From an uncultured bacterium (GTDB taxonomy: Bacteria > Verrucomicrobiota > Kiritimatiellia > RFP12 > UBA1067), in assembly GCA_902800055.1 (NCBI GenBank), contig CADCCW010000007.1, positions 3,788 through 67,787 on the forward strand: a stretch of 64,000 nucleotides of DNA. The letters are read 5' to 3'. Of this stretch, positions 15,947 through 63,061 are shown piece by piece. The notes below the pieces were generated by a model. The model was not told the origin of the DNA and searched no databases. It saw only the letters and a list, made by a program, of their open reading frames with translations. Within the stretch, counting starts at the first letter, position 1. The number at the start of each line of letters is the position of its first letter. The translations under genes and the position numbers were made by a program.

Positions 15947-15959
15947 TGTTTGAGTGTTT

Positions 15960-16032
15960 AACACACGGATTTGTTCGCGACTACGTCGCTCACAGATGGC
16001 GAAGGTCGTAGACTAGAGCAAATCCGTGTGTT
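15960..16032 (+). repeat. hairpin repeat copy B (perfect 14-bp arms AACACACGGATTTG / CAAATCCGTGTGTT)
   Basis: Same element as 3834-3906. Starts 14 nt after the ACP-2 stop. Flanks (TTTGAGTxTTTAAC on the left, TAxAACTA on the right) are also shared. Confidence 0.85.
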
Positions 16033-16041
16033 ATAACTAAA

Positions 16042-31575: not shown

Positions 31576-31651
31576 GGGGAAGTAGCTCAGTTGGTAGAGC
31601 ATCACGTTCGCAACGTGGGGGTCGGGAGTTCGAATCTCCTCTTCTCCACCA
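31576..31651 (+). tRNA. tRNA-Ala (anticodon CGC)
   Basis: Manual cloverleaf: acceptor GGGGAAG/CTTCTCC with G3:U70, D arm GCTC-AGTTGGTA-GAGC, anticodon loop TTCGCAA, T arm GGGAG-TTCGAAT-CTCCT. Encoded CCA. 76 nt. Confidence 0.93.
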
Positions 31652-31702: not shown

Positions 31703-34700
31703 ATGAAGGACAGGTTTTTCTCAAAGCTGGACTGGGCTGCGTTCTGGACGGCCACGGTCGCCACTTTCGCGGTGTATTTCTACACCCTCGGGCCATCCGT
31801 GGGGCTGGAGGACTCGGGCGAGCTCGCCACCGCCGCCGCCAACCTCGGCGTGCCGCATCCTCCTGGGTATCCGTTCTGGACCTTCTGCTCCTGGCTTTTC
31901 TGCAAGGCGTTCTCCTTCGTCACCTACATGGGCCATCCGACGCCGGCGTGGTGCGTCTCGCTCTGCTCGGCCGTCTTTGGCGCCTTCGCCGCGGGCTGCA
32001 CGGCGATGCTGATCTGCCGCTCGGGGCGGGACTTCGTCGACGGCGAGGAGGGGCCTGGCGCGTGGCTCTGCTTCGGCGGCGGCGTCGCCGGCGCGCTGAC
32101 CTTCGCGCTTTCGCCGGTCGAGTGGTCGCAGTCGACGATCGTCGAGATCTACTCGCTCAACGCGCTCTTCCTGATGTGGGTGTTCCTGCTGTCCTACCGC
32201 TGGATGCGCCGGCCGTCCGACAAGATCCTCTGGACGACGGCCTTCGTCTTCGGCCTCGGCCTCACCAACTACCAGGTGCTTTTGTTCGCGATCGTGCCGC
32301 TCGCGCTTGTCATCGCGATGAAGAACATCGGCATGTTCCGGGACGTGTTCATCTACCTCACCCCGGTCGCGCTCACCTACCAGGTGCTGCAGATCGGCCA
32401 GCTCGTGCGCGCCGACCGCGTGATGAGCGCGGACGCGATCAACAAGCACCTGCCGCTGAAGGCGGCGACGGTGCCGTCCACCACGGTGCTGGTCCTCGGC
32501 CTTGCGGCTATCGTCGTGTCCATCGCCGCCGCGGCGTTCCTGAGCCGCCGCGGCAGCCGCGAGCGTGCGCGCAAGGTGGCGCTCTTTGGCGGCGTGGGCG
32601 GCGTCGTGCTGATGCTCGCGTCGATGTATATCTTTTCGTCGATTTCGGTGTGGGGCGGGGCGGACCTCGAGCTTGCGCCGCTCGTAGAGCCGTGGCGCTA
32701 CCTGCTCGTGGCCGCGTGCGCGGCAGGCTCGGTCGTCGCCGCGGCGCTGGCGGCGCTGCGTCCGGCGGAGGATCCCGAGCCGGACGGGTTCGCCGCGCGC
32801 GTCAAGGCGCAGTTCTGCCGCGAGCTCTGGATCGCGGTCGCGCTCGCGGCGCTGGCGGTGGTGTTCGCGACGATGGTGCCGCAGGCCGGCGACGGCGGCT
32901 ACCTGGGGCCGAAGTATCCCTGGGGCAAGTCGACGCTCGTCTTCGTCCTGGTGCTGGCGGCGCTGTTCGCGATGTGCTCCTCGACGCCGCGCGGGCTCTC
33001 CTTCGCGGTGCCGGTGGCCGGCCTCCACATCGCGGCGTTCGTGCTCCTCTCGCGCGGTGCGCTCAACGGGCTCACGCATCCGACCACCTGGTACTTCTGC
33101 TGGCCGGTCGCCTGGAACTTCGCGCTGCTGGCGCTTTCGGTGCTGACGTTGCCGAACGGGCTCAGTGTCGCCGGCGCGGCGTTCTTCGCGCAGCTCGGGG
33201 TGAGCTTCTACGCCTACATGCCGATCGTCTCCGACCTCAGGAACCCGCCGATGAACTGGGGCTACCCGCGCACCTGGGAGGGCTTCAAGCACGCGATCAT
33301 GCGCGGCCAGTACGAGGCGATCGGCTTCCAGCTGCCGAAGTGGGGCGCGATTCTCGAGTACTTCAAGGACGTGCGGGTGCAGTTCACCGACGTGATGATC
33401 CCGTTCGCGCTGGTGCCGTTCGTCGCCGGGCGTTGGATCGTGAGGAAGGAGAACCGCAAGGCGTTCTGGCAGTGGATGGTGCCGGTGCTCGTGTGCTTCC
33501 TCCTGATGAGCGTGCTGCTCGTCGGCCTCGCGAACGTGAAGGGCGACCTGCAGGACGGCTTCATCCAGAAGGTGAAGTTCATCTCCTCGCACGCGATGAT
33601 CGCGCTCTGGATCGGCTACGGCCTCGTCTTCGCCTGCGCGTTCGCGCTTCGGAAGGCGGGCGAGCGCGGGCTGCTCGCCGGCGGCAGGGTGCGCCTCGCC
33701 GCCTTCGCCGCCGCCGCGCTGATGATCGCCGTCTCGTTCTTTGCGCCGCTCGTCGACAACTACTGCGGCGACTACCGGCTCGGCGTGAACGAGGTCGCGT
33801 TCAAGCTCGGCGGTTCGGAGCAGAACGGCCACACCTTCGGCTGGCAGTTCGGCGCCTACCAGCTCGAGGGCGCGAAGGCGATCAACGAGCAGATCGAGGC
33901 CGACGAGGAGCCGCTTCCCGACCCGACCTGGCCGCCGCCGATGGAGAAGTACTCCATCTTCTTCGGCGGCACCGACCCGGGCCGCTTCGTGCCCACCTAC
34001 ATGATCTACTCGGCGCTATTTCGCCCCGACGTCTACCTCATCACCCAGAATGCCCTTGCCGACGACACCTACATGTCGGTCGAGCGCGACCTCTACGGCG
34101 ACGAGATCTGGATTCCGTCCAAGGAGGACTCTGCCGAGGCGTTCAACGTCTACGTCGACGAGGTGCAGCGCGGCGTGAGGCCGGCGAACGGCGACGTGAA
34201 GATCGAGAACGGCCGCGTGCAGGTGACGGGCGCGCTCGGGGTGATGGAGATCAACGGCATCCTCACCAAGATGATGCACGACCACGACCGCCTGCGCCAC
34301 GCGTTCTACGTAGAGGAGTCGTACGTCATCCCGTGGATGTACCCGTACCTGAGCCCGCACGGCCTCATCATGAAGATCAACGCGGACCGCACCCCCTACG
34401 ACGCGAAGACCGCGGCGAAGGACCGCGACTTCTGGGACTGGTACGTGCGGCGGCTCCTGAACGACCCCGCCTACCGGCGCGACTTCGCCGGACAGAAGAG
34501 CTTCTCCAAGCTCCGCGCCGCCATCGCCGGGCTCTACATCAAGCAGGGCCGCTACCGCGAGGGATCCCAGGCCTTCCGCGAGGCGTGCCTCCTCTACCCC
34601 GCCTCGCCCGAGGCGACGTTCCGCTACGCCCAGGAGTGCCTGATGCCGTTCCGGAAGTGGAACGAGACGCTTGAGCTGATGGACTACACCGACCTCATCG

Positions 34701-35221
34701 ACCCCAACAACCGCCGCACCCGCCAGCTGCGCGACTACGTGACCAGAATCCGCGCGCTCACCGAGGAGACCGAGCGGCTTGAGGGCAAGCGCCGCTCCGG
34801 CAATCTCACCAACGCGGAGTCGCTCGCGCTTGCGCGCTGCTACTACGAGATGGGCAGGACGGTTGAGGCGGCCTCGCTCGTGCAGCCGATCGCCGACTCA
34901 CTCCAGAGCCCGTCCGACCTGCGCTTGGCGGCGACGGTCCTCCGCGAGGCGAGGCGCGCCGCCGAGGCGGAGAAGGTCCTCGACCGCTACCTCCGCGCGG
35001 TGCCGTCAGACGCAGACGCCTGGCTGGAGCTTGCCATTTTCCAGCACCGCTCCAACCGCCGGTCCAAGGCGATGGCCAGCTTCGACCAGGCGGTGCGCGC
35101 CGACGCCCGCGCTGTCGAGGCGCGGCTCCAGAAGCGCGAGCCGGACCTGATGGAAATCTACACCGGCTGGACCCGCCACCAGCCAGCCGCGCAGCGCCGC
35201 CAGCCGTCCTCGGTGTGGTGA
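31703..35221 (+). CDS. DUF2723 (GT-C-like) polytopic membrane protein with C-terminal TPR region
   Basis: DSGELATAAANLGVPHPPGYPFWT signature, more than 10 TM helices, and a TPR-like tail. 1172 aa. Confidence 0.85.
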   Translation: MKDRFFSKLDWAAFWTATVATFAVYFYTLGPSVGLEDSGELATAAANLGVPHPPGYPFWTFCSWLFCKAFSFVTYMGHPTPAWCVSLCSAVFGAFAAGCTAMLICRSGRDFVDGEEGPGAWLCFGGGVAGALTFALSPVEWSQSTIVEIYSLNALFLMWVFLLSYRWMRRPSDKILWTTAFVFGLGLTNYQVLLFAIVPLALVIAMKNIGMFRDVFIYLTPVALTYQVLQIGQLVRADRVMSADAINKHLPLKAATVPSTTVLVLGLAAIVVSIAAAAFLSRRGSRERARKVALFGGVGGVVLMLASMYIFSSISVWGGADLELAPLVEPWRYLLVAACAAGSVVAAALAALRPAEDPEPDGFAARVKAQFCRELWIAVALAALAVVFATMVPQAGDGGYLGPKYPWGKSTLVFVLVLAALFAMCSSTPRGLSFAVPVAGLHIAAFVLLSRGALNGLTHPTTWYFCWPVAWNFALLALSVLTLPNGLSVAGAAFFAQLGVSFYAYMPIVSDLRNPPMNWGYPRTWEGFKHAIMRGQYEAIGFQLPKWGAILEYFKDVRVQFTDVMIPFALVPFVAGRWIVRKENRKAFWQWMVPVLVCFLLMSVLLVGLANVKGDLQDGFIQKVKFISSHAMIALWIGYGLVFACAFALRKAGERGLLAGGRVRLAAFAAAALMIAVSFFAPLVDNYCGDYRLGVNEVAFKLGGSEQNGHTFGWQFGAYQLEGAKAINEQIEADEEPLPDPTWPPPMEKYSIFFGGTDPGRFVPTYMIYSALFRPDVYLITQNALADDTYMSVERDLYGDEIWIPSKEDSAEAFNVYVDEVQRGVRPANGDVKIENGRVQVTGALGVMEINGILTKMMHDHDRLRHAFYVEESYVIPWMYPYLSPHGLIMKINADRTPYDAKTAAKDRDFWDWYVRRLLNDPAYRRDFAGQKSFSKLRAAIAGLYIKQGRYREGSQAFREACLLYPASPEATFRYAQECLMPFRKWNETLELMDYTDLIDPNNRRTRQLRDYVTRIRALTEETERLEGKRRSGNLTNAESLALARCYYEMGRTVEAASLVQPIADSLQSPSDLRLAATVLREARRAAEAEKVLDRYLRAVPSDADAWLELAIFQHRSNRRSKAMASFDQAVRADARAVEARLQKREPDLMEIYTGWTRHQPAAQRRQPSSVW

Positions 35222-35264
35222 GCGGTTAGCGGCAAGTCGTTTTTCAAAGAAAGGAGACAACAAC

Positions 35265-36293
35265 ATGAAAGCGCCCAAGAAGGGAATCAAGTGGGAGAAG
35301 CTCGGCTTTGGCTTCTCCGACGTCAACTGCCACCTCAGGATGACCTGGAAGGACGGCAAGTGGTCGAAGCCGAAGTTCGTCAAGGACCCGTGGATCAAGA
35401 TGCACATCGGCGCGGCCTGCCTCCACTACGGTCAGGAGTGCTTCGAGGGCATCAAGGCCTTCCGCCAGAAGAGCGGCAAGATCGTCATCTTCCGCCCCGA
35501 CGAGAACGCCAAGCGCATGTACAGGACGGCCGAGCGCACCTGCATGCCGCCGATTCCGGTGAAGACCTTCATCGAGTGCTGCAAGGCGGTCGTCAGGAAG
35601 AACGCCGAGTACGTGCCGCCGTTCGGCACCGGCGGGTCGATGTACCTCCGTCCGCTCCTGATCGGAACCGGTCCGCAGATCGGCGTCGCGCCGGCGAAGG
35701 AATACACTTTCATGATCATGGTCATGCCGGTCGGCGCCTACTACAAGGGCGGCATCAAGCCGGTGCGGGCGGTCATCTTCGACCAGTGGGACCGCGCCGC
35801 GCCCCACGGCATGGGCGACGTCAAGGTCGGCGGCAACTACGCCGCGGGCATCTTCGCGCACGAGAAGGCGAAGAAGGAAGGCTGGCCGGTCGAGCTCTAC
35901 CTCGACGCCAAGACCCACAAGTACATCGAGGAGTTCGCAACCTCCAACTTCGCCGGCATCACCAAGGACGGCGCGTATGTGACTCCCGACTCCTGCTCGG
36001 TGCTCCCCTCGGTCACCAACATGTCGCTCCGCCAGTGCGCGAAGGACCTCGGCATCAAGGTCGAGGTGCGCCCGGTGCCCTACACCGAGGTGAAGAAGCT
36101 CAAGGCCGTCGCCGCGCTCGGCACGGCGGTCGTCATCACGCCCGTCTGGGAAATCACCCGCGGCAAGGAGGTGATCAAGGTGTCCGACCCCGAGGTCGTC
36201 CATCCGACCCTGCAGAAGCTCTACGACCGCGTCCAGGGCATCCAGTACGGACTCGTCCCCGACCGCCACCACTGGTGCTTCGAGGTCAAGTAG
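35265..36293 (+). CDS. ilvE: branched-chain amino acid aminotransferase
   Basis: AAAGGAGA SD. LHYGQECFEGIKAF, GTGGSMYLRPLLIG and VKVGGNYA are class IV aminotransferase motifs. Confidence 0.9.
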   Translation: MKAPKKGIKWEKLGFGFSDVNCHLRMTWKDGKWSKPKFVKDPWIKMHIGAACLHYGQECFEGIKAFRQKSGKIVIFRPDENAKRMYRTAERTCMPPIPVKTFIECCKAVVRKNAEYVPPFGTGGSMYLRPLLIGTGPQIGVAPAKEYTFMIMVMPVGAYYKGGIKPVRAVIFDQWDRAAPHGMGDVKVGGNYAAGIFAHEKAKKEGWPVELYLDAKTHKYIEEFATSNFAGITKDGAYVTPDSCSVLPSVTNMSLRQCAKDLGIKVEVRPVPYTEVKKLKAVAALGTAVVITPVWEITRGKEVIKVSDPEVVHPTLQKLYDRVQGIQYGLVPDRHHWCFEVK

Positions 36294-36297
36294 CCAC

Positions 36298-37953
36298 GTG
36301 TCGGCCGGCGAGATAGTCGCGAAGATCCTCCGGGCCCGCGGCATCAGCGAAGCCGAGCTCGGGGACTTCCTCAATCCGTCCCTCGACCAGCTCGCGCGCC
36401 CAGAGGACCTGCCCGGCGTCGAGGCGGCGGCCGACGCCGTCCTCGCCGCGGTTGCGGCGGGGCGCAAGGTCGTCGTCTTTGGCGACTACGACTGCGACGG
36501 CGTGTGCGCCACCGCGATCTTGGTGAAGGCGCTCGGCGCGCTGGGGGCGAATGTCGAGCCGTTCCTGCCCAGCCGCCTCACCGAGGGCTACGGCATGAGC
36601 GACGCATCAGTCGCGCGTCTCCTCGCCGAGCAGCCAGACGTCGGGCTCGTCGTCACCGTCGACAACGGCATCAACTCCATCGACCAGATCGCCGCGCTCA
36701 GGTCCCGTGGCGTCGAGGTGGTGGTGACCGACCACCATCTCCCCGGCCGCCTCGCCTCTGACGACGGCTCGCCGGGCGAGATCGTGCTGCCGGAGGCCGC
36801 CGCGCTCGTCAACCCCAAGGTCGAGGCGCCAGCGCGCCTTGCCGACCTCTGCGGCGCCGGCGTTGCCTTCCTGCTCGCCAATCGCCTGATTGCCGAGGCC
36901 GCGCGCCGCGGCATGTATTCCGGCGAGAAGATCGGCGGCCCGCTGCTGGTGCTCGCCGGCATCGCCACGGTGACGGACCTCATGCCGATCCTCGGCCAGA
37001 ACCGCATCCTCGTCGCCGAGGCGCTGAAGCGCTTCGCCGCTTGGGCGCCGATGGGCGTGCGCGAGCTCTACGCGCGCGCCGCGCGCGCTGGCTCCGAGCG
37101 ATTGACTTCGCGCGACTTCGGCTTCCTCATCGGCCCGCGCATCAACGCCTCCGGGCGAATTGCCTCGGGCGACGAGGCGCTGGAGCTGGTGCTTTCGGAC
37201 GACCGCGAGATTTCGCGCGAGTTGGCGCGGATCGTTGACATGCGCAATGTCGAGCGCCGGTCGATTGAGCAGAAGATGTCGGAAGAGGCCGCCGCCAAAG
37301 TGGTGCAGGGCGCGAGCGCCCAGGTCATCGACCTCCCCGACGGCCATCCCGGGGTGGCGGGGATCGTCGCCTCGCGGCTGCTCGAATGCGTCGGGCGGGG
37401 ACCGGTGTGCGTCATCGCGGGCGGGCACGGCTCCGGCCGCGCGCCGGGCGGGTTCAACCTGCGCGACGCCTTCGACGCCTGCGCTTCCGTTCTCGAGCGC
37501 TACGGCGGCCACGCCGCCGCCGGCGGGTTCTCGGTTAAGCCAGGGAAGACCGACGAGTTCCGGCGGCTGCTCTGCGAATACTGCGAGCGCGAGGAGCGGC
37601 TGCATCCGCCGGTCACCGCCGGAATCGAGCCGGACGTCTGGATCGAGCCCGACGACGTCACGCTGGAGCTTGCCGACGAGGTGGCGCTGCTCGAGCCGTT
37701 CGGCGAGGGCAACCCCGAGCCTGTCTTCGCGCTTCGCGGCGTCACCATCGCCGATGTGCGTCCGCTCGGTTCGGAAGGGCGCCACCTCACGCTTTCGCTC
37801 CGCGAGTCGCGGCTGAGGGGAGTGTTCTGGAACCACGGTGACATGGTGGAGGAGCTGCGTGCCCACCCCTCGCACCGAAACGTCTTCTTCACCCTCTGCA
37901 TCTCCGACTACGGCGAGCGCCACGTCGAGCTCAAGCTGGTGGCGGTGGAATGA
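36298..37953 (+). CDS. recJ: single-stranded-DNA-specific exonuclease RecJ
   Basis: GTG start. DHH motifs VVFGDYDCDGV, VTVDNG and VTDHH. DHHA1 GGHAAAGG. Confidence 0.9.
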   Translation: MSAGEIVAKILRARGISEAELGDFLNPSLDQLARPEDLPGVEAAADAVLAAVAAGRKVVVFGDYDCDGVCATAILVKALGALGANVEPFLPSRLTEGYGMSDASVARLLAEQPDVGLVVTVDNGINSIDQIAALRSRGVEVVVTDHHLPGRLASDDGSPGEIVLPEAAALVNPKVEAPARLADLCGAGVAFLLANRLIAEAARRGMYSGEKIGGPLLVLAGIATVTDLMPILGQNRILVAEALKRFAAWAPMGVRELYARAARAGSERLTSRDFGFLIGPRINASGRIASGDEALELVLSDDREISRELARIVDMRNVERRSIEQKMSEEAAAKVVQGASAQVIDLPDGHPGVAGIVASRLLECVGRGPVCVIAGGHGSGRAPGGFNLRDAFDACASVLERYGGHAAAGGFSVKPGKTDEFRRLLCEYCEREERLHPPVTAGIEPDVWIEPDDVTLELADEVALLEPFGEGNPEPVFALRGVTIADVRPLGSEGRHLTLSLRESRLRGVFWNHGDMVEELRAHPSHRNVFFTLCISDYGERHVELKLVAVE

Positions 37954-37965
37954 TTCACCTCGTTA

Positions 37966-37974
37966 TGGTATAAT
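37966..37974 (+). promoter_or_regulatory. extended -10 promoter (TGGTATAAT), leaderless
   Basis: Starts 13 nt after the recJ stop. The hexamer ends 7 nt before ATG 37982. Confidence 0.55.
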
Positions 37975-37981
37975 TCGCATC

Positions 37982-38791
37982 ATGATTGTCCTTATTGCAG
38001 CTTTCGCCGCCGGGTGCGGCGGTTTCGCCGCGGCCCGCTGGGGCTTCGGCGCCGGAATCGGCTGGAGCGTGTTCTGGGGGATACTCTCTCTGGTAGTCGC
38101 CCAGTTCGTCCTCGGGTTCCTCGTCCAGCGCCGCGTGAAGGCGGTGATGAACGCAGTGCAGTCCATCCTGCTCGCCGGGCAGAAGCGCCTGCAGCAGAAG
38201 ATGCAGCGCTGGCAGATGCGCCCGCCGGGCTCGGTGCAGGCCGCCCAGAAGGAGATCTTCGCCGACACCAAGGTGTTCGTGCAGGACGCGCTCGCGAAGG
38301 TGGAAGAGCTCAACCGCTTCCGCCTGCTCGTACCGATGATGGACCGCCAGATCGCCACCGCCAAGGTGCAGCTCGCCTGGATGATCAAGGACTTCAAAAC
38401 CGTCGACGCGCTGATGCCGAAGGTGCTGCTGGTGGACCCGATGATGACCGCGATCAAGATCGCGCGCCTCCACATGACCGGCGGCGACTTCAAGGAGATC
38501 GAGAAGCTCTACCGCAAGGGCGTCGGGCGCGTGCGCTACAACGGCAACGTCCTCCTCGCCGCGGAGATGAGCTGGATCCAGGTCAAGCGCGGCGACGCCG
38601 ACGGCGCGTTCAAGACGCTCACCGAGGCGCTGAAGAAGAGCGACGACGCGACGCTGAAGCGCAACCACGAGTGCCTGATGAACAACCGCGTCGGCCACTT
38701 CTCCAACTCCGGCCTCGGCGACCAGTGGTACTCGCTGCTCCTCGAGGAGCCGAAGGTCCACGTCCAGCGCCAGCGCAGCGTCTACCGCTGA
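37982..38791 (+). CDS. hypothetical membrane protein (two N-terminal TM helices, helical repeat C-terminus)
   Basis: MIVLIAAFAAGCGGFAAARWGFGAGIGWSVFWGILSLVVAQFVLGFLV, then a helical, TPR-like region. No named family recognised. Confidence 0.6.
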   Translation: MIVLIAAFAAGCGGFAAARWGFGAGIGWSVFWGILSLVVAQFVLGFLVQRRVKAVMNAVQSILLAGQKRLQQKMQRWQMRPPGSVQAAQKEIFADTKVFVQDALAKVEELNRFRLLVPMMDRQIATAKVQLAWMIKDFKTVDALMPKVLLVDPMMTAIKIARLHMTGGDFKEIEKLYRKGVGRVRYNGNVLLAAEMSWIQVKRGDADGAFKTLTEALKKSDDATLKRNHECLMNNRVGHFSNSGLGDQWYSLLLEEPKVHVQRQRSVYR

Positions 38792-38798
38792 GGCGGCG

Positions 38799-38858
38799 GC
38801 AGAAGAAGCGGAGGCTGTTTTTAACGCAAAGAACACAAAGAACACAGAGGGCTCTTTG
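38799..38858 (+). repeat. conserved 5' block of the P3/P4 leader
   Basis: GCAGAAGAAGCGGAGGCTGTTTTTAACGCAAAGAACACAAAGAACACAGAGGGCTCTTTG matches 51161-51220 at about 55 of 60 positions. Confidence 0.85.
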
Positions 38859-38863
38859 GAAGT

Positions 38864-38894
38864 GTTTGAGGGTTTGAGTGAAGAGTGTTTGAGT
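38864..38894 (+). repeat. tandem octamer GTTTGAGN (x3 plus one degenerate unit)
   Basis: GTTTGAGG GTTTGAGT GAAGAGT GTTTGAGT. TTTGAG also flanks both hairpin repeats. Confidence 0.7.
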
Positions 38895-38963
38895 TCTGGC
38901 TTTGCTCCCATGAATCACGAATTTGAATCCACCAATATCACCACCAACAACGAGGATAACACC

Positions 38964-41900
38964 ATGAACACCCAAGTAGTGAAATCTGCTGCGGTCAAGG
39001 TGCTGGCGGTGGGCGCGATGCTAGCGGCAACAGCGCCGTTCGCTGCGGTCGCGGACGAAGGCAAGTCTACTAGCGACTATGTCCAGGACGGACTGGTGGC
39101 GCAGTGGGACGGCGTCGAGAACGCCGGGGTCGGGGTGCACGAAGACTCGCCGAGTGCGTGGGTGGACATCGTCGGCGGCCTGGAGATAACCATTCCAGAA
39201 TGGGTGACGGTGGAGACGAACGCCTTCTATTCGGAATCCTCGACCGCCACGCGCACCTATCCGTCCATCTCCTCGATTCCCGGCCTCGGCGACAACGTGA
39301 CGATCGAGGTCGTTGCCGAGCGCGTGATGTGGCGCGATAAGACCAACTACGGGAATCTCCAGCCTGTCATCACTTCGCCCTACGCGAAGTTTGGCTATCG
39401 TCAGGACTCCACGGCGGGCGTCTTTTATCAGATGCCAATCGGCACGAACAACAAGCTGTGGCTCTACACGAGCACAAGCGGAAGTTTCGACGTTTCTGAA
39501 TGCCACACGTACACTGCAAGGGTCACCATGCCAAGGGACGTGTCCAACACGCTGCTCGTCGATGCGGCGACGGTTCCAGGCTGGGCTAAGGAGGGTACCG
39601 ATGGATTGCCGACCGATCCGCCAACCAACTGGACGTTCTTCAGCGCGCCGCGCGCTGATGTACGCCTCCACGCCATCCGCGTCTACAACCGCAAGCTGAC
39701 CGACGCCGAGGTTACGGCCAACGCCGCCGTGGACAACGTGCGCTTTGTCGAGGGGAAGATTTCCAACGGCACGCTCAAGTCCGCGCTGGAGAACGTCAGC
39801 ACCAACAGCGTGAACCTCGTCTGGTCGCTGGTGACGTCGGCGGACCCGGCGCCGACGGTGACGGCCCGCTTCGTGAGCGGCCGCGAGCCGGATCTCTCGG
39901 ACGGCGTCGCCCGCGCCCTCGGCACCATCTCCGCCAACACCGTCGTCACCTCCGCCGTCCCGTTCGTGCGCTACGCCACGACCTACTGGCGGCTTGAGGC
40001 GGAGGACACCAACGGCAAGTCCTACGTCACGGCGACCAAGACGGTGCCGGCCTTCTCCCTCGACTCCACTTCGTATGTGTCGTCCGGCCTGGTGGCGCAG
40101 TGGGACGGCGTCGAGAACGCCGGGCGCGGCGTCCATTCCGACAGCCCGACCGTCTGGAAGGACCTCGTCGGCTCGAATGACATCACTCTGCCTGCATGGG
40201 TCTCGGCCACGGCGAAGGGGATGGATTCAGTCGGCTCGTCCGAGTCGAGGACGTATCCTGAACTTGCGTCGATCACCGGCCTCGACGGCGACGACGTCAC
40301 GATCGAGGTCGCGGCGAGGCGCGTCCGCTGGACGCAGACCGACGACTACGGGAACCTCCAGTCATTCTTCACTTCGCCATGGGGGCATTTCGGGTACCGG
40401 TTCAACCAGAACGACGCCTTCTACGCCTACCTTCCGCCAAACGGAAACAACGCCGGCCAGGCGAAGCTCTACAACATCAACACCGGAACCGGTGGCGCCA
40501 AGGTTACCGAATGCCAGACCATTGCCGGGCGCATCACGCGCAACTCGTCGTCGGCCCAGAACGGGCTGTTCATCAACGCCGCCGCGCAAACGCTCGTGTA
40601 CGCCAACTATTCCGCCAACCTCGGGAGCAGTTGGAAGTTCTTCAACAATCCCCGCACCGAGATCGAGTTCTACGCCATCCGCGTCTACAACCGGCGGCTG
40701 ACGAGCAGTGAACTCGCGGGGAACGCCTGGGTCGACAGGCTCCGCGTGACCGGCGAGATGACGGACAACGCGGCTGCGCCGCTCCAGATTGCGTACGACG
40801 GCGCCGGCGCGTCGGTCCGCAAGGGATACTACTGCTGGCCGGTGCCTGGCGAGGCCTTTTCCCACCGCGTCGCCTACTCCGTGCCGGACGGCGACTACCA
40901 GTCGCTCTGCGTCGGGTGGACGCGCTACGTGGAAACGAGCACCGACGTCTGGGAGGAGGAGGCGCACGGCGCGACCTGCGAGGCGTCGTATCTGCCCGAC
41001 TCGCGCCGTCACCGCCTCGTCTTCCACACGGCGAAGTGGCGGGACTTCCCGGCTGGATATGCTCGCCTCGACGGCCTTGTCGCCAACGGCAACCAGATAA
41101 TCGACACCGGATACTACCCGAACTACCATACCTATTGTGTGATCGACCTCAAGTTTACCGGCAACACCTACAACTACCAAGGTAGCGTCAGCCCCTTCGG
41201 CGCACCGCCATCCGCAGGCGGACTGCAGTTTTCCGTCAATTTCGGCGGCAATGCCAACCAAGGAACAACGCTCTTTTTCTGGACCCGCTACAACTACGCC
41301 ACCGGCGGCGACAGTGAAATCCGCCAAATGACAACTACCGCCAATACCGTCAAGAACCGCAGCAGCCTCTATATCCACATGACGGATGGCGGAGCACAAT
41401 ACGGGGACACGCTAATAGGAATCAAGCAGCGCGCGGAGGATCAGACACAGTCGACGACGTTCAGGCTCTTCGGTCTCACCGCCCCGTTCAACGGCTACGA
41501 CAGCATGACCATCTACGGCACCAAGCTCGGCGAACGCGTCGGAACCGACACGACGTATCAGCGGGACCTCGTCCCGGCGCGGTCCGCCGAGACGGGCCTC
41601 CGCGGGCTCTACGACTACGTGACCGGCGGCTTCTTCACCAACATCGTCGAGAACGCCGCGGAGGACTTTGCCGGCGATCTGTCCTCCGCGGTCTACATCG
41701 ACGGCGAGCCGTCGCGGATTGGCGAGCCGACGATTCCCTACGGCTATGCTGAGATGGAGTCCGGCTGGGAGTTTGAGCTTGCGGAGACGAACACGGTGAA
41801 GACGACCGGGCACCAGATGCACGTCAAGTCGATTGCGCGCTACACTTACAACGACACGACTGGCGCGTGGACGCTCGCCGAGCGCACGAAGGGCGGGAAG

Positions 41901-41984
41901 GTCACCGCAACCTACTCCGGCGCGCCGACGCGATACGTCCTGGAATGGGCCGAGAACACCGGCTTCTTCATCTACCTGCACTGA
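38964..41984 (+). CDS. giant secreted protein P3: two LamG-like domains plus one DFVP module and C-terminal extension
   Basis: GAGGA SD plus ATG 38964. Signal peptide is MNTQVVKSAAVKVLAVGAMLAATAP. Duplicated GLVAQWDGVENAG...(H/Y)AIRVYNR(K/R)LT. FPAGYARLDGLVANGNQIIDTGYYP...YQRDLVPARSAETGLRGLYD. C-terminus is GFFIYLH*. The ORF-track start at 38856 (TTG) is also in frame. Confidence 0.85.
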   Translation: MNTQVVKSAAVKVLAVGAMLAATAPFAAVADEGKSTSDYVQDGLVAQWDGVENAGVGVHEDSPSAWVDIVGGLEITIPEWVTVETNAFYSESSTATRTYPSISSIPGLGDNVTIEVVAERVMWRDKTNYGNLQPVITSPYAKFGYRQDSTAGVFYQMPIGTNNKLWLYTSTSGSFDVSECHTYTARVTMPRDVSNTLLVDAATVPGWAKEGTDGLPTDPPTNWTFFSAPRADVRLHAIRVYNRKLTDAEVTANAAVDNVRFVEGKISNGTLKSALENVSTNSVNLVWSLVTSADPAPTVTARFVSGREPDLSDGVARALGTISANTVVTSAVPFVRYATTYWRLEAEDTNGKSYVTATKTVPAFSLDSTSYVSSGLVAQWDGVENAGRGVHSDSPTVWKDLVGSNDITLPAWVSATAKGMDSVGSSESRTYPELASITGLDGDDVTIEVAARRVRWTQTDDYGNLQSFFTSPWGHFGYRFNQNDAFYAYLPPNGNNAGQAKLYNINTGTGGAKVTECQTIAGRITRNSSSAQNGLFINAAAQTLVYANYSANLGSSWKFFNNPRTEIEFYAIRVYNRRLTSSELAGNAWVDRLRVTGEMTDNAAAPLQIAYDGAGASVRKGYYCWPVPGEAFSHRVAYSVPDGDYQSLCVGWTRYVETSTDVWEEEAHGATCEASYLPDSRRHRLVFHTAKWRDFPAGYARLDGLVANGNQIIDTGYYPNYHTYCVIDLKFTGNTYNYQGSVSPFGAPPSAGGLQFSVNFGGNANQGTTLFFWTRYNYATGGDSEIRQMTTTANTVKNRSSLYIHMTDGGAQYGDTLIGIKQRAEDQTQSTTFRLFGLTAPFNGYDSMTIYGTKLGERVGTDTTYQRDLVPARSAETGLRGLYDYVTGGFFTNIVENAAEDFAGDLSSAVYIDGEPSRIGEPTIPYGYAEMESGWEFELAETNTVKTTGHQMHVKSIARYTYNDTTGAWTLAERTKGGKVTATYSGAPTRYVLEWAENTGFFIYLH

Positions 41985-45400: not shown

Positions 45401-45435
45401 GACGAACAACGAGCCGCGAATCACGAACCACGAAT
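45401..45435 (+). repeat. tandem heptamer array (G/A/C)ACGA(A/G)N x5 abutting a promoter
   Basis: GACGAAC AACGAGC CGCGAAT CACGAAC CACGAAT, ending 1 nt before the TGATATAAT extended -10. Confidence 0.8.
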
Positions 45436-45436
45436 A

Positions 45437-45445
45437 TGATATAAT
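45437..45445 (+). promoter_or_regulatory. extended -10 promoter (TGATATAAT), leaderless
   Basis: The hexamer ends 8 nt before ATG 45454. Confidence 0.55.
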
Positions 45446-45453
45446 ACACACTC

Positions 45454-47112
45454 ATGCGAGATTTCAACGACAGGAAGGTGAGGAAGGCCATCGTCCTTGC
45501 GGCTGGCTTCGGCACGCGGCTGAGGCCGTTTACGTGCGCCGTGCCCAAGCCGCTCCTGCCGGTCTGGGGCGAGCCGATGCTCGCGCGCGTCGTCGACAGG
45601 CTGCGCTCGCTGGGCGTCGAGGAGATCGTCGTCAACTGCCACCACCTGCACGAACAGGTCGAGGCGTGGTGTGCGACAAACGGCTGCCGCGCTGCCTTCG
45701 AGCCGGAGATCCTCGGCACCGGCGGCGTCCTTAACCCGCTACGCGAATGGATCGGCGGCGATGACTTCTACCTCGTCAACGGCGACATCGTCCTTGAGGG
45801 CTTCGACGGCTTCGGCGAGGGCGCGCTGGGCGTCAAGGGCGCGGACGGGACGGGCGCAATTGCTTTTGCGCTTACGGCCGAGACGGGTCCGCGCACGATC
45901 GAGGTGGAGCCGCATAGCGGATTCGTCACCAACTGGAGCAGCGACGACGCCGGCTTCCCCGGCACCTTCACCTACTGCGGCTTTGCTCTCTTGTCGGCGA
46001 AGATCCTCGACTACGTCGAGCCGACCGGTTTTTCATCCATCATCGCCGCCTACGAGCGCGCGATGGGCGACGGCTGGTTCGTGAAGGCGGTTTCGCCGAA
46101 GGGGATGCTATGGACCGACGCCGGGTCGATCGACAGCTACCTTGACGTCAACCGCCACGAGGACGACAACGCCTTCGCCGACCTGCCGCAGCTCAAGGCG
46201 ACGGTTGGCGACGGCGACGGCGCGGTCGAATTCCTCGGCGCGCGCGGCAGCGACCGCGCCTTCTTCCGCCGCGGCGACAAGATTGCCATCGTCTACGACG
46301 ACGCCAAGCGCTCCGAGAACGCGCTCTACGCGCCGCAGGCCCGCTGGCTGAAGGAGCGCGACGTTCCGGTGCCGGCGGTTCTCGCTGACCGGCCCGACCT
46401 CAAGGCGCTGGCGATGGAGTGGGGTGGCGAAGAGCGCAAGATGTCGCTTGCCGACCGCGTGCGCGTCGTCGAGGAGCTCGCGAAGTTCAATGCGCTCGGC
46501 GCGCGCTGGGCAGATTCCGCCGCGGAGGGCCTGCCGAAGCTCATGGAGGCGTTCGGTCCCGAGACCTGGGCGTGGGAGCGCGGGCTTTTCGCCGAGCACT
46601 GCCTTGGGACGCGGTTCCGACGCGAAATGCCGGCGGCGGTGGAGACGGAGCTGAAGGCGGTCGCCGACCGGCTTGAGCACGAGCCGAAGGCGCTCGTCCA
46701 CCGCGACTTCCAGTCCTCGAACGTGCTCTGGAAGGGCGACGAGCCGTGCTTCATCGATTTCCAGGGGATGCGGCTTGGTCCCGCGGCCTACGATCTTGCG
46801 TCGTTCGTCTACGATCCCTACGTCGACATCTCCGAGCGCGAGCGCGAGGCGCTGGCGCTCAAGTACGCGCAGGTCTCCGGACGCGAGGACATCGCCGGCG
46901 TCCTGCCGTTCGCGGCGGTCGAGCGGCTGGTGCAGTGCCTCGGCGCCTACGGCAGGCTCGCCTCGGTCGGCCAGCCGCAGTTCGGCAGGTACGTGCTGCC
47001 GGCGCTGGAGCGGCTACTCGCGGCGGCGGACGAAGCCAACCTCGACGCCACCGGCGCGCTGGCCGAGGACCTCATCGCCGAGGAAGGGCACCACCACCAT
47101 CACCACAAATGA
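45454..47112 (+). CDS. bifunctional sugar-1-phosphate nucleotidyltransferase / sugar kinase (MurU-AmgK-like fusion) with natural His6 tail
   Basis: N-terminus has KAIVLAAGFGTRLRPFTCAVPKPLLPV (NTP_transferase). C-terminus has LVHRDFQSSNVLW...FIDFQGMRLGPAAYDLASFVYDPY (APH-fold kinase, AmgK-like). Ends EEGHHHHHHK*. A LicC/LicA-type function cannot be excluded by eye. Confidence 0.75.
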   Translation: MRDFNDRKVRKAIVLAAGFGTRLRPFTCAVPKPLLPVWGEPMLARVVDRLRSLGVEEIVVNCHHLHEQVEAWCATNGCRAAFEPEILGTGGVLNPLREWIGGDDFYLVNGDIVLEGFDGFGEGALGVKGADGTGAIAFALTAETGPRTIEVEPHSGFVTNWSSDDAGFPGTFTYCGFALLSAKILDYVEPTGFSSIIAAYERAMGDGWFVKAVSPKGMLWTDAGSIDSYLDVNRHEDDNAFADLPQLKATVGDGDGAVEFLGARGSDRAFFRRGDKIAIVYDDAKRSENALYAPQARWLKERDVPVPAVLADRPDLKALAMEWGGEERKMSLADRVRVVEELAKFNALGARWADSAAEGLPKLMEAFGPETWAWERGLFAEHCLGTRFRREMPAAVETELKAVADRLEHEPKALVHRDFQSSNVLWKGDEPCFIDFQGMRLGPAAYDLASFVYDPYVDISEREREALALKYAQVSGREDIAGVLPFAAVERLVQCLGAYGRLASVGQPQFGRYVLPALERLLAAADEANLDATGALAEDLIAEEGHHHHHHK

Positions 47113-50500: not shown

Positions 50501-52759
50501 ATGGGCATTATCAAAGACATCCACGGCGACATCGAGCGGGAGGCGGCGCTTCTCCTCGATAGATACCGTGATGCACTGATGCTGGAGGCGCTCACGCTTT
50601 CCTCCGGTGACTCCCATGCCGCCGAGGAGCTGGTGCTCCAGACCTTTGAGGCGTATCTCTTCGGCCGCGAGCGGTTCGACCCTTCGAAAGGCGAGCTGCT
50701 GCCGTGGCTGCGTGGCATCCTACGCAACATCCACGGCAAGGCCGGGCGTGGCAAGTCGGTGAAAGCTGTATCTTATCTCTCGCAGGACGAGCTTGAGCTT
50801 ATCAGCGAAATCCGCCGGCAAGACAACTCCACCGACGAGGAGATACTCTCCAATTCCGATTCCGAAGTGATCCGCAAGGTGATAGAGGCGCTGCCGGACA
50901 AGACGAGGCGGATAATCGTCTTGCGCTGTTTTGAGTCCGCCTCCTTCGGGGAAATCGCCCGTTTGCTCGGCATCAGCGAGATTTCGGTGAAGAATCGGTT
51001 CTATTACGCCCGCAAGCTTTTGGCGCGGCGGCTCGGCAAGCTCCTGGGCCGCGCACCCGCCATTGCGCTTGGCGTAATTCTCGCCGGGGCCTCGCTCCTC
51101 TACGCAGCGGCGGTTGTCACCGGCCTCGCCCCATCGCCGTTCGCTGCGGCGGAGCCCGCGGCAGAAGAAGCGGAGGTTGTTTTTAACGCAAAGAGCACAA
51201 AGGACACAGAGGGGGCTTTGACAGGATTGCCTGCCGTGGGGACAGACCCCGAGCCTGCCGTCTCAAGTCTCTCGTCTCAAGCCCCGGCCTCGAACCACGA
51301 ATCACGAACCACGAACCGCGAAACCAATGGGGACAGTCCCCAGCAACCCGAGGTGATAACTGCCAATTCTGAAACCAACAACGAGGAAAACACCATGAAC
51401 ACCCAATTGGTCAAATCTGCCGCGGTCAAGGCACTGGCGGCGGGCGCAATGCTCGCGGCGGCGGCAGTTCCGGCGAAGAGCACGCAGGCGACGGATCTGC
51501 CATCTGGCTACACCAAACTTGAGTACATCCAGGGTGACGGCGCGAGCGCCCGCCTCATAACCGACTACACCCCCAATCCGCAGACAGACAAAATCGAGGC
51601 GGTAATCGAGTGGCCAGCGGAGACAATCGGCGGAAACCAGCAAGTCTGGTGTGCGCGAGGCACTAGCGGGACGGACAAAACTTATACATTGTTCGCAATC
51701 GGTTCCAATCTTCGTTTTGACTACAACAAAACACGGGGAGATCTGCTTACGCCAGAAATCTCCGAGGGGGTGAAATACACCGTCACCGCCGATCGCTACA
51801 TGTTTACCTGGTCGGGCGGCAACGGGCAGACTCATACTGAAAGCACCATTTTTCAGTCGACAGGCTACCCATTAGTGCTGTTCGCGTCCTATGCCAGAGG
51901 TGTCAACACCGAAGTCGTAAACTATGGCAAGCACCGGCTATATTCCTTCAAGGTCTGGCGCTCGGATGAACTCATTCACGATTTCGTACCGTGCAGAGAC
52001 CCGAACGGCGTGGCGACGATGGTTGACGTCTGCGACAATCCCGCGACGCTGACGGTCCAGGGGACATTCATCGCCCCTGGCGACAATGGAAAGTTGCCAG
52101 CTGGATACACCGAGGTCCAGTATATTCAGGGTAACGGTGAGGACGCCCGCATCGTCACCTCTTATATTCCGCATCCGCAGACAGACAAGGCCGAGGCGGT
52201 GGTCGAGTGGCCGTCGTCGGTCGGTGATGCCTTGTCAGGAAATCAGGGTGTATGGTGCGCACGAGGCTCGACAACATCGACCGCATCCTGGACGCTGCAC
52301 ATGCTGGGCAATAGCGGCGGCAAGTTCCGATTCGACTACAACTCGGCATCAGGCAACCTTCTTGAGCCTGCGCTTTCCACAGACGTGAAGTACACCGTAA
52401 CGGCCGACAGGAATGTGGTTTCATGGTCGGGCGGCAACGGGCAGACGCACACGCCGGTTATTGGCTTTACAGCTGCCGGCGATCGAATGGTGCTTTTCGC
52501 TGTGTATAGCGGCGGAACAATCGATACATATCCAGGCAACTACGGCAAGCACCGGCTCTACTCCTTCAAGGTCTGGCGGTCGGGTGAGCTCATCCACTAC
52601 TTTGTGCCGTGCAAGGATCCGAACGGCGTAGCGACGATGGTTGATATTTGCTACAACGCGGCACTGACCATAGATGGCACCTTCACCGCCGGTCCCGAAG
52701 GGCACTACTACGACGATAAGCTCTTCAGGCCAGCGGGTACGGTGTATTACATTCTATAG
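50501..52759 (+). CDS. continuous ORF: ECF-type sigma-70 factor, hydrophobic helix, repeat-encoded linker, then P4 module protein
   Basis: Region 2 is LVLQTFEAYLFGRERFDPSKGELLPWLRGILRN. Region 4 HTH is RRIIVLRCFESASFGEIARLLGISEISVKNRFYYARKLL. No in-frame stop until 52757-52759. Whether one or two proteins are made is unresolved. Confidence 0.5.
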   Translation: MGIIKDIHGDIEREAALLLDRYRDALMLEALTLSSGDSHAAEELVLQTFEAYLFGRERFDPSKGELLPWLRGILRNIHGKAGRGKSVKAVSYLSQDELELISEIRRQDNSTDEEILSNSDSEVIRKVIEALPDKTRRIIVLRCFESASFGEIARLLGISEISVKNRFYYARKLLARRLGKLLGRAPAIALGVILAGASLLYAAAVVTGLAPSPFAAAEPAAEEAEVVFNAKSTKDTEGALTGLPAVGTDPEPAVSSLSSQAPASNHESRTTNRETNGDSPQQPEVITANSETNNEENTMNTQLVKSAAVKALAAGAMLAAAAVPAKSTQATDLPSGYTKLEYIQGDGASARLITDYTPNPQTDKIEAVIEWPAETIGGNQQVWCARGTSGTDKTYTLFAIGSNLRFDYNKTRGDLLTPEISEGVKYTVTADRYMFTWSGGNGQTHTESTIFQSTGYPLVLFASYARGVNTEVVNYGKHRLYSFKVWRSDELIHDFVPCRDPNGVATMVDVCDNPATLTVQGTFIAPGDNGKLPAGYTEVQYIQGNGEDARIVTSYIPHPQTDKAEAVVEWPSSVGDALSGNQGVWCARGSTTSTASWTLHMLGNSGGKFRFDYNSASGNLLEPALSTDVKYTVTADRNVVSWSGGNGQTHTPVIGFTAAGDRMVLFAVYSGGTIDTYPGNYGKHRLYSFKVWRSGELIHYFVPCKDPNGVATMVDICYNAALTIDGTFTAGPEGHYYDDKLFRPAGTVYYIL
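51161..51220 (+). repeat. conserved 5' block of the P3/P4 leader (copy inside the sigma ORF)
   Basis: About 55 of 60 identity to 38799-38858, including TTTTTAACGCAAAGA. Confidence 0.85.
51289..51323 (+). repeat. tandem heptamer array CACGAAN x5
   Basis: CTCGAAC CACGAAT CACGAAC CACGAAC CGCGAAA. A second 7-nt array (GTCTCAA GTCTCTC GTCTCAA) lies at 51260-51280. Confidence 0.8.
51395..52759 (+). CDS. secreted protein P4 (internal start): two tandem DFVP jelly-roll-like modules
   Basis: GAGGA SD plus ATG 51395. MNTQLVKSAAVKALAAGAMLAAAAVPA is nearly identical to the P3 start. Two modules run LP(S/A)GYT..(E/Q)YIQG(D/N)G ... YGKHRLYSFKVWRS.ELIH.FVPC.DPNGVATMVD. C-terminus is GTVYYIL*. Confidence 0.65.
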   Translation: MNTQLVKSAAVKALAAGAMLAAAAVPAKSTQATDLPSGYTKLEYIQGDGASARLITDYTPNPQTDKIEAVIEWPAETIGGNQQVWCARGTSGTDKTYTLFAIGSNLRFDYNKTRGDLLTPEISEGVKYTVTADRYMFTWSGGNGQTHTESTIFQSTGYPLVLFASYARGVNTEVVNYGKHRLYSFKVWRSDELIHDFVPCRDPNGVATMVDVCDNPATLTVQGTFIAPGDNGKLPAGYTEVQYIQGNGEDARIVTSYIPHPQTDKAEAVVEWPSSVGDALSGNQGVWCARGSTTSTASWTLHMLGNSGGKFRFDYNSASGNLLEPALSTDVKYTVTADRNVVSWSGGNGQTHTPVIGFTAAGDRMVLFAVYSGGTIDTYPGNYGKHRLYSFKVWRSGELIHYFVPCKDPNGVATMVDICYNAALTIDGTFTAGPEGHYYDDKLFRPAGTVYYIL

Positions 52760-60433: not shown

Positions 60434-60450
60434 TTTGCTTTCTCCTTTAA

Positions 60451-60554
60451 CCTTTCAACCTTTCAACTTTTCAACTTTTCAACTTTTCAACCTTTCAACC
60501 TTTCAACTTTTCAACTTTTCAACCTTTCAACCTTTCAACCCTTCAACTTTTCAA
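60451..60554 (-). repeat. 13-unit tandem octamer array (mRNA sense UUGAAARG) filling the thiH-thiC spacer
   Basis: Plus strand has 13 contiguous CYTTTCAA units (one CCCTTCAA) from 60451 to 60554. The array starts immediately after the thiH stop (60555-60557). A degenerate 14th unit merges with the thiC SD (TTAAAGGAGAAAG). Confidence 0.95.
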
Positions 60555-62462: not shown

Positions 62463-62588
62463 TTTTTAACACAGAGGCACAGAGACTCAGAGACACAGAG
62501 TTAGAAGCTGGGGTTGCCACCCCAGACCCCGCGCCGAAGGCGCACTCAAAAACCTCTGTGCCTTTGTGCTTATGTGTCTCTTTGTTAT
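62463..62588. repeat. long imperfect hairpin built from CACAGAGN octamers with two internal GC hairpins
   Basis: Left arm is TTTTTAACACAGAGGCACAGAGACTCAGAGACACAGAG (62463-62500). Right arm is CCTCTGTGCCTTTGTGCTTATGTGTCTCTTTGTTAT (62553-62588). Inner hairpins are CTGGGGTTGCCACCCCAG (62508-62525) and GCGCCGAAGGCGC (62531-62543). Confidence 0.8.
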
Positions 62589-62635
62589 GACAAATCATTT
62601 GTGTAGGATCTCTATTGTCGTTTTAGGTTAAAGCG

Positions 62636-63010
62636 TTAGTTGACTATGCGCTTGAATCCGGAAATAAGTGTTTCCTTTCCGAAATTCACAAGCAGCCCCA
62701 AATGCAAATTCATGAGGCGAAGATATGTAAGAGTTTGAATTGCAAAGATCGGATTGTCTTTGTCTGTCGCTTTGCATTCGACAACGACACGCCCCTCCAC
62801 AAGCAGATCGATTCGCAGCGGATCGCCCACGACAACGCCCTTGTAGACTACCGGGACATGAACCTCCTTTTCGACCTTAAAACCTCTTTGTGCCAATTCG
62901 TAGGCAAGCGCATCTTGATACACTGACTCAAGCAATCCAGGACCCCCAAGCGTCCGATGCACAGTTATGGCCGCATCAAGCACCTCCTTGCTGATATCAT
63001 TATCTTCCAT
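62636..63010 (-). CDS. GxxExxY protein (PD-(D/E)XK nuclease fold family)
   Basis: 124 aa. GPGLLESVYQDALAYEL contains G-x-x-E-x-x-Y. Also RIDLLVEGRVVVECK. Much lower GC than its neighbours. Confidence 0.85.
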   Translation of the reverse strand: MEDNDISKEVLDAAITVHRTLGGPGLLESVYQDALAYELAQRGFKVEKEVHVPVVYKGVVVGDPLRIDLLVEGRVVVECKATDKDNPIFAIQTLTYLRLMNLHLGLLVNFGKETLISGFKRIVN

Positions 63011-63017
63011 TTCTGTT

Positions 63018-63054
63018 CTCTGTGCCTCCGTGTCTCTGTGTCTCTGTGTTAAAA
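63018..63054 (-). repeat. CACAGAGN-type repeat upstream of the GxxExxY gene
   Basis: Minus strand reads TTTTAACACAGAGACACAGAGACACGGAGGCACAGAG and runs into the SD/ATG of the GxxExxY gene. Confidence 0.8.
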
Positions 63055-63061
63055 TCTCTCT

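Follow-up and report, generated by a model that had tools for sequence, protein, structure and literature searches.

The 172 nt that precede gene P3 (positions 38,792 to 38,963) in a 64,000-nt stretch of DNA from an uncultured bacterium of the Kiritimatiellia, hereafter the window, share their two ends with the DNA upstream of the paralogous gene P4. A preliminary description regarded both stretches as a modular, regulatory or recombinogenic 5' leader specific to one gene family. We consider it probable that this "leader" is a linker which places a membrane-anchored sigma factor and a secreted protein in the same reading frame, in a large family of genes from rumen Kiritimatiellae, and that the copy before P3 is a remnant of one. 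The preliminary description holds for the modular architecture (conserved ends plus exchangeable repeat modules), for recombination and for the restriction to one gene family. It fails for the non-coding 5' leader of P3/P4 paralogues, as P4 and at least 120 related clusters carry the stretch as the in-frame linker of an open reading frame (ORF) encoding a sigma factor, a membrane helix and a secreted protein.

One frame from sigma factor to secreted protein

The two loci share a left end, the 60-nt block, which is identical at 55 of 60 positions (38799-38858 versus 51161-51220), and a right end identical at 76 of 86 (38943-39028 versus 51374-51459). A 44-nt pattern of the block had no match in 100 shuffles. 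Between these ends the cores differ, the repeat contents of P3 and P4 being unrelated, as described before. Upstream of the start codons, the P3 frame is free of stops back to 38682 and the P4 frame back to 50501, which is the start of an extracytoplasmic function (ECF) sigma factor ORF, whereas the two other frames contain 3 and 5 stops in P3, and 3 and 2 in P4. As only 3% (P3) and 7% (P4) of same-letter shuffles lack a stop, the idea that the absence of stops carries meaning is supported.

At the P4 locus, a 752-codon ORF (50501-52759) runs without interruption through an ECF sigma factor, a membrane helix, an acidic linker, an internal Shine-Dalgarno sequence and ATG, a signal peptide and a secreted domain. 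Pfam searches on 50501-51394 place Sigma70_r2, Sigma70_r4, Sigma70_r4_2 and Sigma70_ECF at the N-terminus, and hydropathy predicts the helix at amino acids (aa) 181-211 (hydropathy 2.35), just behind basic residues RKLLARRLGKLLGR. Besides this helix, the ORF has a single hydrophobic segment, at the signal-peptide-like start of P4 (hydropathy 1.67). Neither the sigma-linker part nor P4 has a Pfam match to an anti-sigma module (ZAS zinc finger or FecR-like). A metatranscriptome contig spans 50545-51293, from the sigma part into the linker, and carries an extra in-frame ACAGGATTA; RNA contigs cover P4 and the sigma side at similar depth.

Related loci were picked by DNA pattern, independently of gene calls. 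A scan for 24 nt of the block in one genome per species yielded the P4 orthologue of RUG10963 (L005), and a scan for the Shine-Dalgarno/ATG region in metagenome contigs yielded L011, L012 and L013. In all five sigma-linked DNA loci (P4 and these four), a single ORF begins with the sigma factor (MGIIKDI...), crosses the linker and continues into the secreted protein. Their cores are variously composed: that of L005 contains (GAAACCAATGGGGAC)x2, and L011 has five heptamers versus two in L012, a difference of exactly 21 nt. The distance from the block start to the internal ATG was measured in a seven-locus set comprising sigma-linked loci and the more distant L014, L016 and L018; it amounts to 222, 141, 174, 204, 123, 207 and 210 nt, in each case a multiple of three. 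The block is present in relatives, so that a purely recent local duplication is not borne out, and the leader frame of the other copies checked is stop-free.

Proteins extend this picture. A search with the first 330 residues retrieved 120 fused clusters of 430-1288 aa, all from Kiritimatiellae where a source is named, with sigma identity to the query reaching down to about 30% and with varied C-terminal domains (Laminin_G_3, Beta_helix, LRR_5, Pel9A-like, DUF2341). Among the 109 clusters that could be parsed automatically there are 33 linker lengths (50-103 aa), all in frame. A control search with the sigma part alone, limited to proteins of 118-376 aa, gave only 8 matches. The frame kept in seven of seven DNA loci and in 120 clusters with 33 linker lengths, together with so few short homologues, leads us to conclude that selection upholds frame and stop-freeness.

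The DNA modules can be recognized in these linkers by the peptides they encode: EVVFNAK.T..TEG (the 60-nt block) in 96 of the 120 clusters, NGDSPQ (GGGGACAGTCCCC) in 89, TNHESRTTNHE (CACGAAN heptamers) in 71, TGLTGF (ACAGGATTN 9-mers) in 49 and EVFEGLSEECL (GTTTGAG units) in 24. Some linkers (P0045-P0073) hold more in-frame inserts, within the heptamer tract or after TGLTGF (e.g. SASAEATAGMR, HPSSDRLRGSLRSGDIQ), and these look like additional small DNA elements tolerated in frame.

The linker also contains a candidate internal start. At the junction, 111 of 113 parsed clusters have Met and the other 2 have Val, fitting ATG and GTG, and the codons four to five positions upstream always encode E-[EGD] (G-E in one cluster), spelling GAGG or GGAG. 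In a linker that is free to vary elsewhere, such invariance speaks for a ribosome-binding site and a start codon.

The P3 deletion and unfused alleles

The origin of the P3 leader becomes apparent from other strains. Contig L011 (positions 1-5760) is syntenic with window 33041-38795 at 97% identity. Past 38795, it continues with a 91-nt hairpin element, then a promoter-like TGGTAAT, then a complete sigma/membrane-helix ORF, and meets the window again at 38787, from where linker and P3 orthologue follow in frame. The window thus lacks about 810-885 nt present in other strains (hairpin element, promoter, and sigma/membrane-helix coding part), and a GGCG microhomology at the junction sits directly behind the TGA of the upstream gene. 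Similarly, in a contig of another run (X43), 885 letters replace 38799-38946, which corresponds to the intact allele, and loose contig ends at 38796-38798 read as ...SPFAAAEP-type sigma ends. An assembly artefact at the junction is ruled out by a 920-nt Logan contig of the likely source run, which equals 38203-39122 with 0 differences, and by a 2156-nt contig from a second sample that likewise spans the junction.

Only 4 of 172 positions distinguish the relic from the intact L012 linker, which indicates that the open frame of the relic was inherited and not selected. No ATG, GTG or TTG lies ahead of the block in the P3 frame, so that the relic cannot be translated from an upstream start. These comparisons of alleles show P3 to be a recent deletion derivative, in which 172 nt of linker were left as a true non-coding leader before an intact gene. 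P3 orthologues exist in three forms: fused to sigma (P0007-P0011), behind a relic leader (P0129, P0130), or with an unrelated signal peptide joined at GAMLAATAP (P0131, P0133-P0135). Between P3 and the gene before it our scan found neither a terminator nor a sigma-70-type promoter, and P3 is here probably transcribed by read-through from the upstream operon. Gene callers begin P3 at TTG 38856 inside the relic (38856-41984, 1042 aa, cluster P0129); the Shine-Dalgarno motif and family conservation favour ATG 38964 (1006 aa) instead.

The same junction differs again in another strain (RNA run X25, loose end at 38799), where GCGGCTGAGTGAGCCGCGATTTTTTTT, a terminator-like hairpin, follows the gene upstream of P3. 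This is a third allele, beside the hairpin-element allele (L011) and the deletion allele (window). Copies of the 91-nt hairpin element, 93-96% identical, lie at window 3823-3913 and 15949-16039 and at L011 5774-5883, with arms TTAACACACGGATT...AATCCGTGTGTTA. They stand upstream of genes in sense orientation, and one copy has gone with the sigma gene in the P3 deletion. Extended -10-like boxes (TGGTATAAT, GATATAAT or TGGTAAT) are found 6-10 nt before ATG codons, including that of the sigma gene (window 3955-3974 and 45432-45456; L011 5905-5931); their spacing suggests leaderless or very short-leader mRNAs in this organism.

The unfused alleles L020, L019 and L022 have kept their downstream gene intact, as has the window with P3. 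The L020 allele, at the same P4 locus and with an identical sigma part, shows a change of GGA to TGA 45 nt before the ATG and lacks the block altogether, and its P4 still has 454 aa. L019 has five heptamers versus four, a +7 nt frameshift, and its sigma ORF stops at a TGA shortly before the next start. Finally, L022 is a recombinant with a duplicated block head plus a frameshift. Directly behind P4 in L020, which comes from a different strain, lie a PhdYeFM/ParE toxin-antitoxin pair and a TonB-dependent receptor (4876-5378).

Table 1. Positions of the features discussed, in window numbering
Feature	Positions	Strand	Remarks
Gene upstream of P3	37838..38791	+	317 aa, without a Pfam match; TGA stop (38789-38791) lies directly before the relic
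Deletion junction	38792..38798	+	GGCG microhomology 38792-38795
60-nt block, P3 copy	38799..38858	+	Relic; TTTTTAAC head, CACAAAG/CACAGAG words 38818-38852
Variable core, P3 type	38859..38942	+	GTTTGAG x3 (38864, 38872, 38887), then CATGAAT/CACGAAT (38909-38922); intact alleles encode EVFEGLSEECLSSGFA.MNHEFE
Conserved right end, P3	38943..38963	+	Shine-Dalgarno GAGGA 38952-38956, 7 nt before ATG 38964
P3	38964..41984	+	1006-aa secreted protein; signal peptide ~38964-39053; orthologues match Laminin_G_3
ECF sigma factor (regions 2 and 4), then one strong membrane helix	50501..51133	+	Pfam, hydropathy
Linker (P4 "leader")	51134..51394	+	aa 212-298, 87 residues, acidic (15 D/E versus 4 K/R)
60-nt block, P4 copy	51161..51220	+	Translated as AEEAEVVFNAKSTKDTEGAL
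Variable core, P4 type	51221..51373	+	ACAGGATT 9-mer, two GGGGACAGNCCCC mini-hairpins (GGGGACAGACCCC, 51238; GGGGACAGTCCCC, 51329-51341), GTCTC units (51260-51281), CACGAAN x4-5 (51291-51323)
Conserved right end, P4	51374..51394	+	Shine-Dalgarno GAGGA 51383-51387 before internal ATG 51395
P4 module	51395..52759	+	454 aa, signal-peptide-like start
Comparator PDDEXK_3/GxxExxY locus	62464..63060	-	Gene 62636-63010, between inverted TTTTAAC-headed CACAGAG arrays

Repeat modules, composition and exchange

The linker does not look like ordinary coding DNA. GC content at third codon positions (GC3) is 0.44-0.56 in the block and 0.46-0.61 in the linker; both the sigma part (0.74-0.87) and the secreted part (0.68-0.80) have higher values. 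Within its first 45 nt the block has ten variable sites, distributed 4:4:2 over codon positions 1:2:3. Six of the seven loci keep VVFNAK, and in these the codons GTT GTT TTT AAC GCA AAG are free of synonymous changes; in the seventh (L018) they are changed non-synonymously to TTT GAT. On the codon-position pattern and GC3, we reject protein-level selection on the block. Nucleotide identity reaches 78-94% in the block where the sigma/membrane-helix parts have 54-77% (orthologous pair P4/L013 excluded). By these measures, the linker is shown to have a non-coding-like composition and substitution pattern, yet it is stop-free and in frame through dozens of length changes.

Its modules are the same short repeats that occur in the intergenic regions of this genome, namely the TTTTAAC-headed CACAAAG/CACAGAG arm, GTTTGAG, CACGAAN and GGGGACAGNCCCC mini-hairpins. 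For example, CACGAAN arrays are intergenic at 16042 and 45415, where they adjoin promoters, and lie within an ORF at 51296. GTTTGAG invariably stands to the left of the 91-nt hairpin elements, with CACGAGCCACGAA arrays to their right, and is likewise found in linkers. All five TTTTAAC sites of the window are heads of this kind, and the block contains TTTTAAC-headed CAC[AG][AG]AG arrays at 38818-38852 and 51180-51214. Moreover, the block core GTTTTTAACGCAAAGAGCACAAAGGACACA is identical at 30 of 30 positions to a sequence of L001 (RUG10963) about 20 nt upstream of a PDDEXK_3/GxxExxY gene, and recurs past that gene. The CACAGAG arrays of the comparator locus belong to the same repeat family as the block core. 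An inverted partner arm for the block was found in neither the P3 nor the P4 leader, and a PDDEXK_3 gene accompanies neither; such genes were found only at 62636-63010 and in L001. Our literature search on GxxExxY/PDDEXK_3 repeat flanks returned nothing relevant. These data are most simply explained if the linker was once an intergenic spacer with a 5' leader, which the ORF upstream took over together with its repeat debris.

Repeats of related appearance occur beyond this family. The exact 24-mer GTTTTTAACGCAAAGANCACAAAG is present in intergenic DNA of Chryseobacterium, Flavobacterium, Chitinophagales, other Bacteroidota and one metagenome-assembled genome of Acidobacteria (L002-L004, L006-L010), amid CGCAAAG/CACAAAG words, and is thus shared by 35%-GC and 65%-GC phyla. 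No PDDEXK_3 gene lies beside it within those Bacteroidota and Acidobacteriota loci. In Chitinophagales, L003 4166-5281 is a tandem array of at least 8 units of about 146 nt, each GGTTTTTAACGCAAAG...CACAAAG, without an Rfam match. The window itself also contains arrays of 8-nt units (60444-60555, 62469-62500 and 63012-63049), with TTGAAARG x14 before a minus-strand gene and CACAGAGN flanking the PDDEXK_3 gene.

Identity of the linker is uncoupled from identity of the sigma part. In P0077 and P0084 the linker is 83-84% identical to the reference and the sigma part 32%, while P0005 has a sigma part 99% identical and a linker 69% identical without the block. L013 represents the P4 locus in a different strain, with 96% identity over 6 kb, and carries a different secreted cassette behind the same sigma factor. 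Its linker is chimeric, with a P4-type block, a P3-type GTTTGAG part and P4-type GGGGACAGTCCCC parts, and its homology with the window stops at 51463, the end of the signal-peptide hydrophobic core, which places the cassette crossover in the signal peptide. Clusters P0001-P0006 share one sigma factor (at least 99% identity where measured: P0001, P0005, P0006) and have total lengths of 542-998 aa. The uncoupled identities, the L013 mosaic, this range of lengths and the foreign signal peptides joined to P3 orthologues at GAMLAATAP make the word "recombinogenic" apt. Comparison of these sequences shows that linker and cassette recombine independently of the sigma domains, and the exchanges happen at the conserved ends.

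Competing explanations and known systems

How the linker arose and what it does can be sketched as follows. A sigma gene would have lost its stop codon, so that the intergenic spacer and 5' leader behind it became part of the upstream gene. By analogy with IutY and SCO4117, in which sigma factor and sensor form one polypeptide, the linker may then serve as a periplasmic tether, and the same stretch may still act as leader and ribosome-binding site, an internal start yielding a free secreted copy. Its conserved ends would offer homology anchors for cassette swaps, and the heptamer tract could occasionally uncouple the sigma and secreted parts. That one piece of DNA does both jobs, as tether of a sigma/anchor/binding-domain protein and as leader and start for a free secreted copy, the linker being a spacer with selfish repeat debris held open for its frame only, is a tentative proposal that we regard as rather doubtful.

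Several points weigh against the linker interpretation or its mechanism. Both the long and the short product are predicted from genes alone, and the fused topology assumes that the signal-peptide-like segment stays un-inserted and that the C-terminal domain is outside the cell. The RNA evidence consists of assembled contigs, which possibly include DNA, break in repeats and have no transcript ends. The family counts come from metagenomic gene calls clustered at 90% identity, and related rumen strains are not independent events. Continuity is not obligatory, as the three unfused alleles L019, L020 and L022 demonstrate. Finally, the high nucleotide conservation of the block could reflect a function at the DNA or RNA level and not recombination.

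An alternative view is that the stretch is a non-coding regulatory leader, in which block and tandem repeats are promoter, operator or 5'-untranslated-region elements and the open frame is incidental. The P3 stretch is truly non-coding, similar arrays adjoin promoters elsewhere in the window, the composition is non-coding-like and the block is more conserved than sigma coding sequence, all of which would fit. We nevertheless hold this view to be very unlikely, as it is largely refuted by a frame and stop-freeness kept over 33 linker lengths in at least 120 clusters. In addition, 24 of the 120 linkers have no block, including that of L020 with the same sigma factor and P4, and our scan detected no sigma-70-type promoter or gene-strand terminator in either leader. 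The block is not present in the sigma gene's own upstream region. We also reject a structured RNA leader such as a riboswitch or attenuator, as Rfam gave no match in either leader or in related loci and both leader RNAs fold more weakly than shuffles (z = +1.56 and +1.30); the only Rfam matches of the window are elsewhere, a tRNA (31576-31648) and a TPP riboswitch (63848-63952, minus strand).

The frame could also be kept open for translation as such, with ribosomes shielding a C-rich unstructured spacer from Rho-type termination and the long fusion protein as a by-product. The C/A-rich, poorly structured spacer, the similar depth of RNA contigs on both sides, and the three unfused alleles, in which only about 30-45 nt separate the end of the sigma ORF from the next ATG, are in line with such an anti-polarity role. 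Out-of-frame alleles that stop just before the ATG would do equally well, yet about 3 are seen versus at least 120 in-frame clusters; the combination of a strong membrane helix with an acidic linker looks like a designed topology, and single-polypeptide sigma/sensor fusions are known (IutY, SCO4117; PMC8999054), which leaves this explanation improbable. Least credible of all, in our judgement, is a contingency switch in which slippage of the CACGAAN tract toggles the locus between fused and uncoupled states. The tandem unit is indeed non-triplet and its tract of four to five units lies inside the P4 ORF, alleles with 2, 4 and 5 units exist, and the extra unit of L019 causes a frameshift by which the sigma ORF terminates ahead of a downstream gene that is itself intact. 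Such tracts are, however, short (2-5 units) and imperfect, with units that differ at position 7 and elsewhere, and many linkers have none. The L019 allele is the only one of its kind against some 120 in-frame clusters, and comes from assembled sequences; L020 and L022 became unfused in other ways, by a point nonsense change and by recombination, respectively.

The linker interpretation explains a stop-free, AT-richer "leader" as coding sequence. It also implies that DNA of non-coding composition and origin can stay in frame for long without selection on its amino acids. If the dual-job proposal were true, every glycan-binding protein that is secreted would be connected to a sigma factor of its own, and cassette exchange at the conserved junction or a frameshift by one heptamer would rewire or uncouple the sensor. 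The family provides natural controls, namely the sigma deletion (P3), the nonsense allele, the one-heptamer frameshift and the recombinant frameshift; as their downstream genes are intact, the idea of two products from one ORF is testable. The analysis identifies a junction at which secreted cassettes shuffle among sigma genes in abundant rumen Kiritimatiellae, with a bearing on the sensing and binding of plant or host glycans. For annotation, caution is advisable, as gene callers report giant sigma factors or spurious N-terminal extensions such as the 1042-aa call of P3.

Parts of this arrangement have counterparts in known systems. The REP/RAYT system is the nearest published one to CACAGAG-type heptad-arm hairpins with GxxExxY/PDDEXK_3 genes. 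The block core TTTTTAAC with its CACAAAG/CACAGAG words is the same sequence as that flanking the PDDEXK_3 genes in L001 and in the window; the linker arm differs in being solo, with neither an inverted partner nor a nuclease gene, and in being translated. Rickettsia palindromic elements (RPEs), reportedly described by Ogata et al. in 2000, are inserted in frame in protein-coding genes. Like RPEs, the modules studied here are repeat DNA of intergenic type tolerated in ORFs, always in frame, and give a floppy, non-conserved peptide. RPEs are complete palindromes, whereas these are short tandem units plus one heptad-word arm, concentrated in one linker of one family.

Contingency loci offer another comparison, for example Neisseria opa with CTCTT repeats in the signal-peptide coding region and Haemophilus with 7-bp repeats upstream of hmw1A and hmw2A. 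Here too, tracts of non-triplet units lie by the signal-peptide region, and their copy number varies between strains and can alter the frame. These tracts are by contrast short and imperfect, in-frame alleles dominate, and a frame change would uncouple two modules instead of switching a gene off. In CdiA and Rhs proteins, C-terminal cassettes are displaced at a conserved junction (VENN or PxxxxDPxGL). The present family similarly has a junction conserved at the nucleotide level between a constant N-terminal part and variable C-terminal modules, which would provide homology for swaps. Unlike these toxins, it involves sigma signalling and domains of glycan-binding type, and its junction holds a translation start and a signal peptide.

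The closest parallels are IutY of Pseudomonas putida (ECF243) and SCO4117 of Streptomyces coelicolor (ECF52), in which an ECF sigma factor is fused to a membrane-spanning, extracytoplasmic C-terminal extension, with a proline-rich region and a carbohydrate-binding domain in SCO4117 (PMC8999054; PMC5826349). The predicted arrangement is the same here, judging from the genes: one polypeptide with the sigma factor inside the cell, a membrane helix, a low-complexity periplasmic stretch and a binding domain. Unlike IutY and SCO4117, no zinc-finger or FecR-type anti-sigma domain was detected in this family. Its extension opens with a complete internal ribosome-binding site, start codon and signal peptide, and constitutes an exchangeable cassette behind a linker made of genomic repeat modules. 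What is added here is the origin of the P3 leader, a repeat-derived linker of non-coding-like composition, and the unfused alleles.

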